From an uncultured Bacillales bacterium (GTDB lineage Bacteria; Bacillota_I; Bacilli_A; RF39; UBA660), in contig CAMOSD010000001.1 in the NCBI GenBank assembly GCA_946624595.1, positions 6,201 to 70,200 of the forward strand: 64,000 nucleotides of DNA. Reading direction: 5' to 3'. Position numbers and translations under genes: made by a program. Under the pieces are notes generated by a model. That model had not been told where the DNA came from. It saw only the letters and a program-made list of their open reading frames with translations, and did not search any database. Positions 29,456 through 29,881 of the stretch are shown piece by piece (position 1 is the stretch's first letter; each line of letters starts with the position of its first letter).

Positions 29456-29881
29456 ATGACAAATACAGGAATGTTTGAATTATGTTATCTTTATTATGAT
29501 GAAAAAACAATGGAACATGCAAAAAGAGTTGCTAATGAAGCACAAAATCTTTGTAAACTTTTTAAACTTCCTTATACAAATTATGATAAATTTGTTTATC
29601 AACTCGGTTTAGCACATGATTTATATGAAGATACAAATATTAAACAAGGTGCTTGGTTTGATTACGATTTTGAAGAAAATCTTCAACTTTTAACAAAAGA
29701 AGAAGATATAGATTATAATGATTATATTGCGAAAATTCGTGGAATGGCAACGAGTAATCCCAAATACCTGCCTGCATATATTGTAAAACTCGCAGATATG
29801 CATGATCATTTTGCACAAGTTGATACATTAACTGATAAACTTAAAAATAAATATGCCGCGGCGATGCCCTATTTAATTTAA
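29456..29881 (+). CDS. HD-domain hydrolase, RelA/SpoT-type (small alarmone hydrolase candidate)
   Basis: H...(approx 30 aa)...LGLAHDLYEDT resembles the SpoT/Mesh1 HD hydrolase motif LLHDvvEDT. Only 141 aa. Confidence 0.45.
   Translation: MTNTGMFELCYLYYDEKTMEHAKRVANEAQNLCKLFKLPYTNYDKFVYQLGLAHDLYEDTNIKQGAWFDYDFEENLQLLTKEEDIDYNDYIAKIRGMATSNPKYLPAYIVKLADMHDHFAQVDTLTDKLKNKYAAAMPYLI

Follow-up and report, generated by a model that had tools for sequence, protein, structure and literature searches.

Which reaction is catalysed by the product of a small HD-domain gene in the block next to the tail module of a phage, and how far can its substrate be read from its relatives? The question was raised by a stretch of 64,000 nucleotides (positions 6,201 to 70,200 of contig CAMOSD010000001.1, assembly GCA_946624595.1, from an uncultured Bacillales bacterium), which is called the window here and is numbered from its first letter. 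A preliminary description of the window had placed a 141-amino-acid (aa) open reading frame (ORF) at 29456-29881 and had proposed a candidate small alarmone hydrolase (SAH) of the SpoT type, as H...LAHDLYEDT appeared to reproduce the HD...ED signature of the RelA/SpoT hydrolases. The ORF lies exactly at the proposed coordinates and has a strong ribosome binding site, and the residues of the signature are present and make up the core that is conserved throughout a genuine protein family. The gene and its ribosome binding site are located as follows.

29456..29881, plus strand: gene of the HD-domain protein, with an ATG start, 141 codons and a TAA stop; small alarmone hydrolase type, closest to Aph1
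29443..29448, plus strand: Shine-Dalgarno sequence AGGAGG, 7 nt 5' of the ATG, read directly from the sequence

The gene is predicted, with a probability of about 0.6, to encode a catalytically competent compact 3'-pyrophosphohydrolase of the RelA/SpoT-hydrolase clade, with Aph1 as its nearest characterised relative and with alarmones as substrates. The alignments and the structural model establish the predicted fold, the metal tetrad H21/H54/D55/D114, the E58-D59 dyad and an Aph1-like K132-Y133 pair.

Catalytic core and fold

Searches with the single 141-aa sequence were uninformative. No match was obtained in a Pfam scan, even at E≤10, and a phmmer search of the PDB gave only chance matches to UDP-galactopyranose mutase (E about 0.5). 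The sole match was to PHROG 990, 'metal-dependent phosphohydrolase' (5e-5). Profiles were therefore needed. A word-indexed search yielded 91 homologues of 135-150 aa with 36-91% identity, nearly all of them metagenomic and none of them named, and an exhaustive profile search, with clustering at 50% identity, extended the family to 342 clusters at E≤1e-10, or 59 at the stricter limit of E≤1e-30. The source databases label this subfamily 'hypothetical protein'. It occurs in only 5 cultured-phage records (26-41% identity), and the neighbourhoods of the cultured-phage relatives Geobacillus virus E3 gp149 (26% identity) and Vibrio phage VPMCC14 (30%) were uninformative.

In 110 diverse members H21, V25, H54, Y87, D114, H118 and Y133 are invariant, and D55, E58, D59, T80, Y90, K111, A113, D117, T124, L125, L129 and K132 are conserved in at least 90%. 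The catalytic positions of the family are under strong purifying conservation. The predicted metal ligands are H21 (codon 29516-29518), H54, D55 and D114, and E58-D59 is the predicted catalytic dyad. The segment L-A-H54-D55-L-Y-E58-D59-T60 is encoded by 29609-29635 and K111-L-A-D114-M-H-D117-H118 by 29786-29809. D117-H118 and T124-L-T-D-K-L-K-x-K132-Y133 are family-specific motifs. The spacing of H54-D55-L-Y-E58-D59 equals that of H77-D78-V-V-E81-D82 in RelSeq, and H21, H54, D55 and D114 align with the metal ligands of RelSeq, Mesh1 and Aph1.

A profile of 31 sequences, searched against the PDB sequences, matched Aph1 (7SMG) at 9.5e-10, RelSeq at 2.4e-4 and fly Mesh1 at 1.2e-3. With a profile of 110 sequences these values improved to 1.8e-12, 1.8e-8 and 4.2e-8, respectively, and further matches were obtained with SpoT (1.7e-7 for 7QPS and 3.9e-7 for 7QPR) and PaSAH (5e-5). 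All of the top 18 matches of the larger profile were hydrolases of the RelA/SpoT homologue (RSH) superfamily, and no generic HD enzyme was found in the same search with E<0.05. Profile-to-sequence alignment with Aph1 by hhalign gave probabilities of 97.2% and 98.3%. In the opposite direction, a phmmer search with full-length Aph1 recovered 83 of the collected family sequences at E≤10, the best 12 of them below 1e-3 (database size 2.5e8), while the C-terminal 53 residues of Aph1 alone, the segment by which its family was defined, recovered no family member as a phmmer query. On the full-length comparison, the Aph1 family and the present HD family appear contiguous in sequence space.

An AlphaFold2 model computed on the family alignment had a mean pLDDT (predicted local distance difference test) of 93.9, a pTM (predicted template modelling score) of 0.89 and eight helices. 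In a Foldseek search of the PDB four Aph1 chains came out on top (template modelling score 0.67-0.69), followed by MESH1, PaSAH and RelH, and the model superposed over its full length on Aph1 7SMG. The structural scores were 12.5-15.3 for SAHs as against 10.5 for YpgQ, 8.3 for YqeK, 7.6 for YfbR, 7.2 for DatZ and about 7 for dGTPases. Viral structural relatives in BFVD carry the automatic name (p)ppGpp synthase/hydrolase.

Profile searches, hhalign and the AlphaFold2/Foldseek comparison thus all favour the RSH hydrolases, in support of the alarmone hydrolase proposed in the preliminary description. A generic HD phosphohydrolase or dNTPase as the best structural match, named there as the contrary outcome, was looked for and was not obtained, as SAH structures scored above YpgQ, YfbR, DatZ and the dGTPases. 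The nearest characterised relative is the (p)ppApp-specific Aph1 rather than Mesh1 or SpoT.

Comparison with Aph1 and the choice of substrate

Aph1 is a 143-aa, eight-helix, tetrameric, (p)ppApp-specific hydrolase of Bacteroides caccae, encoded in a prophage beside the toxin MuF-Apk1; it is compact in that it is without helices 0 and 9 of Rel/PaSAH (PMC10083569). It has a signature of six residues, D24, R96, D116, R119, K133 and Y134, of which D24 and R119 set the adenine specificity, and the double mutant D24R/R119A gains ppGpp activity (PMC10083569). Hydrolysis of ppApp was reported for Aph1 and for 12 of its homologues (PMC10083569). The Aph1 sequence (P0093) was aligned to the HD family.

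At an identity of about 24-26%, the two proteins share a length of about 140 aa, eight helices (in the AlphaFold2 model of the HD protein), the H/HD/D metal site and the ED dyad in an HD..ED(T) motif. They also share H-x-x-R-V round the first metal His (H33/R36/V37 in Aph1, H21/R24/V25 here), T-(K/R) after helix 5, Y-x-D-(Y/F)-I and V-K-L-x-D-x-x-D. At the C-terminus both have L-T-(D/E)-K...K-Y...Y-L, in which K133-Y134 of Aph1 align to K132-Y133. Both are phage-borne, Aph1 in a prophage. Unlike Aph1, the HD protein has a deletion of 3 residues ahead of the K-Y pair, and no toxin or IapK gene is adjacent to its gene.

Classical SAHs (PaSAH 6YVC/6Z3N, MESH1 3NR1/5VXA, RelH 7QOC and PaSpo of phage SSU5) resemble the HD protein as single-domain, hydrolase-only enzymes. 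They differ from it in having 170-200 aa and nine or more helices, with 13-18% identity to the HD protein, in keeping the R-x-x-G-x-P-Y loop and the Asn of K-L-A-D-x-x-x-N, and in being without the C-terminal K-Y motif. The hydrolase domains of long RSH enzymes (RelSeq 1VJ7, Acinetobacter SpoT 7QPR, TtRel 6S2T; profile E-values 1.8e-8 to 4e-7) share the catalytic motifs and their spacing (H53, H77-D78-x-x-E81-D82 and D144 in RelSeq). In contrast to these enzymes, the HD protein has no synthetase or regulatory domains and no equivalents of R43/R44/S45, and the position of N148/N150 is taken by His. Generic HD phosphohydrolases (YpgQ, YqeK, YfbR, DatZ, dGTPase) have the helical core of the HD superfamily and the H...HD...D metal site in common with the HD protein, but are without the ED dyad three residues past the HD motif.

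Several observations count against an Aph1-like alarmone hydrolase. Only two of the six signature residues of Aph1 are kept (K133 and Y134) and three are not matched. The loop G-Q-I-D24-K-A-G-S-A-Y of Aph1 is deleted and replaced by Y-Y-D-E-K-T, with a 7-column gap at this N-terminal loop in every family member; in the model the loop between helices 1 and 2 is a 2-residue turn (residues 14-15), so that a segment of about 10 residues is reduced to 2. The lost loop corresponds to the R-x-(K/S)-G-x-P-Y segment with the guanine-contacting residues R43, R44 and S45 in TtRel, and N114 of Aph1 (N150 in TtRel) forms a hydrogen bond to the ribose (PMC10083569). At the position of this Asn (N148 in RelSeq) the family has H118, invariant in the 110 members. 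Where Aph1 has D116 and R119, the HD protein has A120 and Q121 next to a deletion of two residues. R96 aligns to K93 in a column that is variable in the family. The Pfam threshold of HD_4 was reached by none of the 31 family members scanned: HD_4 matched one of them at all (E 0.0093), while the general HD model PF01966 matched 17, and Aph1 itself is also under the HD_4 threshold (21.4 vs 27.2 bits). Weak NCBIfam matches of the NadD/YqeK type were obtained with 6 of the 31 (5e-6), and YqeK matched 2. In the window the neighbours of the gene are RNA-repair genes, not nucleotide-metabolism genes.

Most specificity residues of Aph1 and Rel have no counterpart in the HD protein, and a (p)ppApp specificity can therefore not be assumed. 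With the base-binding loop missing and the Asn replaced by His, the substrate is not readable by homology, and with two of six signature residues the protein is not filed as a (p)ppApp-specific Aph. To judge by the alignment, the best name is Aph1-like compact small alarmone hydrolase, with a substrate preference that is not predictable because the specificity residues of Aph1 and Rel are mostly missing. In one relative, P0282, an N-terminal half of the Aph1 type that has the D-x-x-G-x-x-Y loop is joined to the C-terminal half of the present family. This protein, which may have arisen by natural recombination or from a chimeric contig, was not used as evidence.

If the protein acts as an alarmone hydrolase, a bound Mn2+ or Mg2+ would activate water for cleavage of the 3'-pyrophosphate ester, as in the rest of the family. 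The likeliest substrates would be (p)ppApp and/or (p)ppGpp, from which ATP/ADP or GTP/GDP would be regenerated. If the gene is transcribed early and from a promoter of its own, the enzyme would hold the alarmone level in the infected cell low and so blunt the stringent response of the host; growth arrest by toxic alarmone synthetases (toxSAS, Tas1/Apk-type) would be blunted likewise. The hydrolase PaSpo of phage SSU5 neutralises toxSAS (PMC9712102, PMC11245113). The context of the gene in other phages speaks for alarmone substrates too, since about 10 of 28 lineages place it among nucleotide-metabolism genes (see below).

The HD protein is a divergent addition to a kind of enzyme that is already common in phages. 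Aph1-like genes were found in 538 cultured-phage records, mostly as 'metal-dependent phosphohydrolase' and some as 'GTP pyrophosphokinase'. An Aph1-like gene was discussed for Pseudomonas phage Adele, whose authors could not predict the substrate either; a tested role of such a gene in lytic infection is not reported, for example, in that paper (PMC12846349). What is added here is a subfamily of about 340 clusters, almost entirely metagenomic, and with it a natural variant without the specificity loop, which is useful for learning how the fold picks its substrates. SAHs can undo toxic (p)ppApp/(p)ppGpp build-up as well as tRNA pyrophosphorylation, the effector chemistry by which toxSAS and CapRel act against phages. 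At present the result amounts to a sound annotation of function rather than to a surprise.

Genomic surroundings and rival explanations

The HD gene is the third gene of a block that runs rightward from 28343; the leftward tail module immediately precedes this block. The features round the HD gene are the following.

28343..29101, plus strand: lambda-type (NinI-like) metallophosphoesterase (Pfam Metallophos 1.6e-13, PHROG 246 2e-32), first gene of the rightward block, which is free of in-frame TAG codons
29103..29390, plus strand: 95-aa protein with no Pfam or PHROG match, beside the HD gene only in close relatives
29377..29404, plus strand: terminator-like hairpin of 10 pairs with a T-run, ending the upstream unit of the metallophosphoesterase and the 95-aa protein
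29421..29429, plus strand: TGTTATAAT, an extended -10-like element between this terminator and the HD gene, putatively a promoter
29892..30716, plus strand: Thg1-like tRNA-His guanylyltransferase/3'-5' polymerase (Pfam Thg1 6.7e-30, PHROG 4717 4.4e-87)
30771..33254, plus strand: major-vault-protein-like (MVP-like) protein of 827 aa (Pfam MVP_shoulder 3.4e-21, Vault_3 8.9e-7), last gene of an apparent HD-Thg1-MVP unit
33262..33297, plus strand: terminator-like hairpin of 15 pairs with a T-run, 3' of the MVP-like gene
33351-33635: 94-aa protein with no Pfam or PHROG match, following the terminator at 33262-33297
33785-35023, plus strand: RNA ligase (PHROG 968 1.2e-63)
35066-35566, plus strand: polynucleotide kinase (PNK)-like P-loop protein (PHROG 505 2e-25)
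35568-36113, plus strand: phosphoesterase (PHROG 547 1.9e-47)

The start codon of the Thg1-like gene lies 10 nt past the stop codon of the HD gene, and the two genes are therefore probably co-transcribed. From their arrangement the HD, Thg1-like and MVP-like genes appear to form one transcription unit within an RNA-repair cluster. No good -35 element was found for TGTTATAAT, and a consensus scan in which a -35 match was required did not list it. Rfam (gathering thresholds) and ARAGORN gave no match over the window, so that no riboswitch or tRNA lies next to the HD gene.

The context was then compared across the family in 79 IMG/VR loci and 8 others, which form 28 HD lineages at 80% identity. 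Nine of the lineages have genes for Thg1-like or MVP-like proteins, RNA ligase, PNK or metallophosphatase within about 7 kb. Their gene order varies (HD-Thg1-MVP, MVP-HD, Thg1-x-HD), and in a rough neighbour-joining tree they are spread over four or more branches, the deepest ones included. In about 10 of the 28 the HD gene stands amid genes of DNA replication and nucleotide metabolism, namely those for Pol III alpha, a RecD-like helicase, DNA ligase, ThyX, dUTPase, FolD, NrdD, MazG and NT5C; ThyX, dUTPase and FolD were confirmed by Pfam, and the other neighbours were taken from precomputed Pfam or from sequence reading. No immediate neighbour conserved across the 28 lineages was found, which argues against a two-gene toxin-immunity module. 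An obligate HD-Thg1 or HD-MVP module was ruled out by reverse searches, in which an HD gene was present within 10 kb at 7 of 79 phage Thg1 loci and at 8 of 80 phage MVP loci. The closest relatives of the MVP-like protein (94% identity) are without an HD gene, and in contig 3300045988_133402 (157 kb) about 48 kb separate the HD gene from the Thg1 gene. The description that fits the HD gene best is that of a variable accessory gene in the presumed early region, which often but not necessarily lies in an RNA-repair island.

This partial linkage bears on the main rival, in which the enzyme would strip from tRNA the pyrophosphate put on the 3'-CCA end by the translation-targeting toxSAS defences CapRel, FaRel2 and PhRel2. 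It would then be one arm of a tRNA-repair island, in which the Thg1-like protein serves the 5' end and the RNA ligase, PNK and phosphoesterases repair anticodon breaks. The short gap to the Thg1-like gene and the terminators that bracket HD-Thg1-MVP agree with such a role, as do the RNA ligase, PNK and two phosphoesterases within 6 kb and the recurrence of these neighbours in nine lineages on several branches of the tree. MESH1, ATfaRel and the phage enzyme PaSpo all undo the pyrophosphorylation of tRNA, and FaRel2-type toxins are neutralised by them (10.1101/2021.04.30.441581; PMC11245113; PMC9712102). Without the base loop a polymer end could, speculatively, gain access to the active site. 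Against this stand the weak reverse tests, the nearest MVP relatives without an HD gene, the distance of about 48 kb in the contig mentioned above and the lineages with DNA- and nucleotide-metabolism neighbours. Moreover, the family is acidic (median pI 5.5) with no sign of an RNA-binding surface; charge and isoelectric point (pI) do not discriminate nucleotide from tRNA substrates. An enzyme dedicated to tRNA is considered unlikely because the genomic linkage is limited to certain lineages and the family is acidic. In the furthest form of this explanation, for which the odds are long, the loop loss and the change from Asn to His may mark a subfamily that acts on a polymer end: a dedicated tRNA 3'-CCA de-pyrophosphorylase, expressed early as a third repair arm, possibly organised round a vault-like shell, and directed against abortive infection of the CapRel/FaRel2 type. 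If the reading of tRNA ends were true, the HD enzyme would be a candidate counter-defence enzyme. To judge from known SAHs, alarmone and tRNA substrates are not mutually exclusive.

The nucleotide-metabolism neighbours of many lineages can also be taken to suggest an HD phosphohydrolase that remodels the nucleotide pool by acting on another nucleotide, such as the 2'-phosphate of NADPH, pAp or 3'-phosphoadenosine 5'-phosphosulfate (PAPS), diadenosine tetraphosphate (Ap4A; YqeK-like) or (d)NTP/(d)NMP (YpgQ/YfbR-like). The NadD/YqeK-type and YqeK matches mentioned above point the same way, MESH1 accepts NADPH and PAPS (PDB 5VXA, 9CHY), and the altered pocket, with its missing loop and its His in place of Asn, permits a changed substrate. 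Such an activity is nevertheless improbable: YpgQ, YqeK, YfbR, DatZ and dGTPase scored well below the SAHs in structure, conservation extends to the ED dyad and to the K-Y motif of the Aph1 type, and generic HD enzymes were missing from the profile matches with E<0.05. It is given some weight because the substrate pocket is visibly altered. Least probable is an immunity protein against a (p)ppApp synthetase toxin of the same phage, for example a MuF-Apk polymorphic toxin, which is exactly the role of Aph1 in Bacteroides and Streptococcus prophages (PMC10083569, PMC12226406). The immediate neighbours of the HD gene vary by lineage and include no conserved partner, a RelA_SpoT synthetase domain was not found among the Pfam-annotated neighbours at loci L001, L002, L004-L006 and L167, and the gene lies in the early/RNA-repair region, not by head-morphogenesis genes. 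The tail module at the left of the window was translated with TAG as Gln and its products were read by eye, without a Pfam scan; they appeared to be tail and fibre proteins, and an obvious toxin was not seen among them. The head module lies outside the window, so a toxin gene at a distance is possible. An Aph1-like hydrolase of alarmones thus continues to be the preferred reading.

Timing of expression and other features of the window

The placement of the gene in time was judged from the use of TAG. Late genes of the window read TAG as sense and no gene ends in TAG. The regions concerned are:

1-28180, minus strand, and scattered plus-strand genes: TAG-sense regions, for example 18217-27621, 12865-17910, 36954-38438, 46997-47953 and 54361-56148

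The tape-measure ORF (18217-27621, minus strand), read with TAG as sense, has 3134 codons with 93 in-frame TAGs, and a tape measure of 3134 aa was also obtained where genes had been called independently, on an ENA contig with an identical HD protein. In-frame TAGs number 24 in another tail ORF, 7 in the endolysin, and 22 and 10 in two more plus-strand ORFs. In recoded gut phages TAG is translated as Gln by means of suppressor tRNAs (PMC9523058, PMC10879173). No suppressor tRNA was found in the window by ARAGORN. Every gene in 27845-36662 is free of in-frame TAG, and so are the topoisomerase, ligase and replication genes. Phage recoding is concentrated in late genes. Early expression of the HD gene fits this bias together with the TAG-free block. 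The description of the gene as being among the first early genes is thus supported by the block at 27845-36662, as a probable placement short of proof.

The segment 28343-36113 holds an unusually complete RNA/tRNA repair set, with two metallophosphoesterases, the Thg1-like polymerase, the RNA ligase and the PNK-like kinase. YqeY-like and CTP_transf-like (nucleotidyltransferase) genes recur at related loci too, and relatives of the 94-aa protein occur in 6 HD lineages, some of them outside RNA-repair contexts. Further to the right in the window lie the genes for both subunits of a type II DNA topoisomerase (38875-40761 and 41005-43341) and, at 44402-46360, that for an NAD-dependent DNA ligase; none of the three contains an in-frame TAG.

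Domain fusions of the HD family were rare. In two relatives from outside the window the HD domain is fused to an N-terminal GNAT acetyltransferase (P0217) or to a weak, sub-threshold hexapeptide-repeat domain (P0215), and a Mur ligase-HD fusion (P0358) is probably an assembly chimera. Their small number or weakness made these fusions unusable as a functional clue.

Phage MVPs were reported in a 2023 preprint (10.1101/2023.11.10.566534), in the text of which neither 'RNA ligase' nor 'guanylyltransferase' occurs. Within 10 kb of the MVP gene, an RNA ligase was present at 30 and a Thg1-like gene at 21 of the 80 IMG/VR MVP loci, and PNK/phosphoesterase and lambda-type metallophosphatase genes in roughly half. 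The MVP-like gene recurs as part of a phage RNA-repair cluster.

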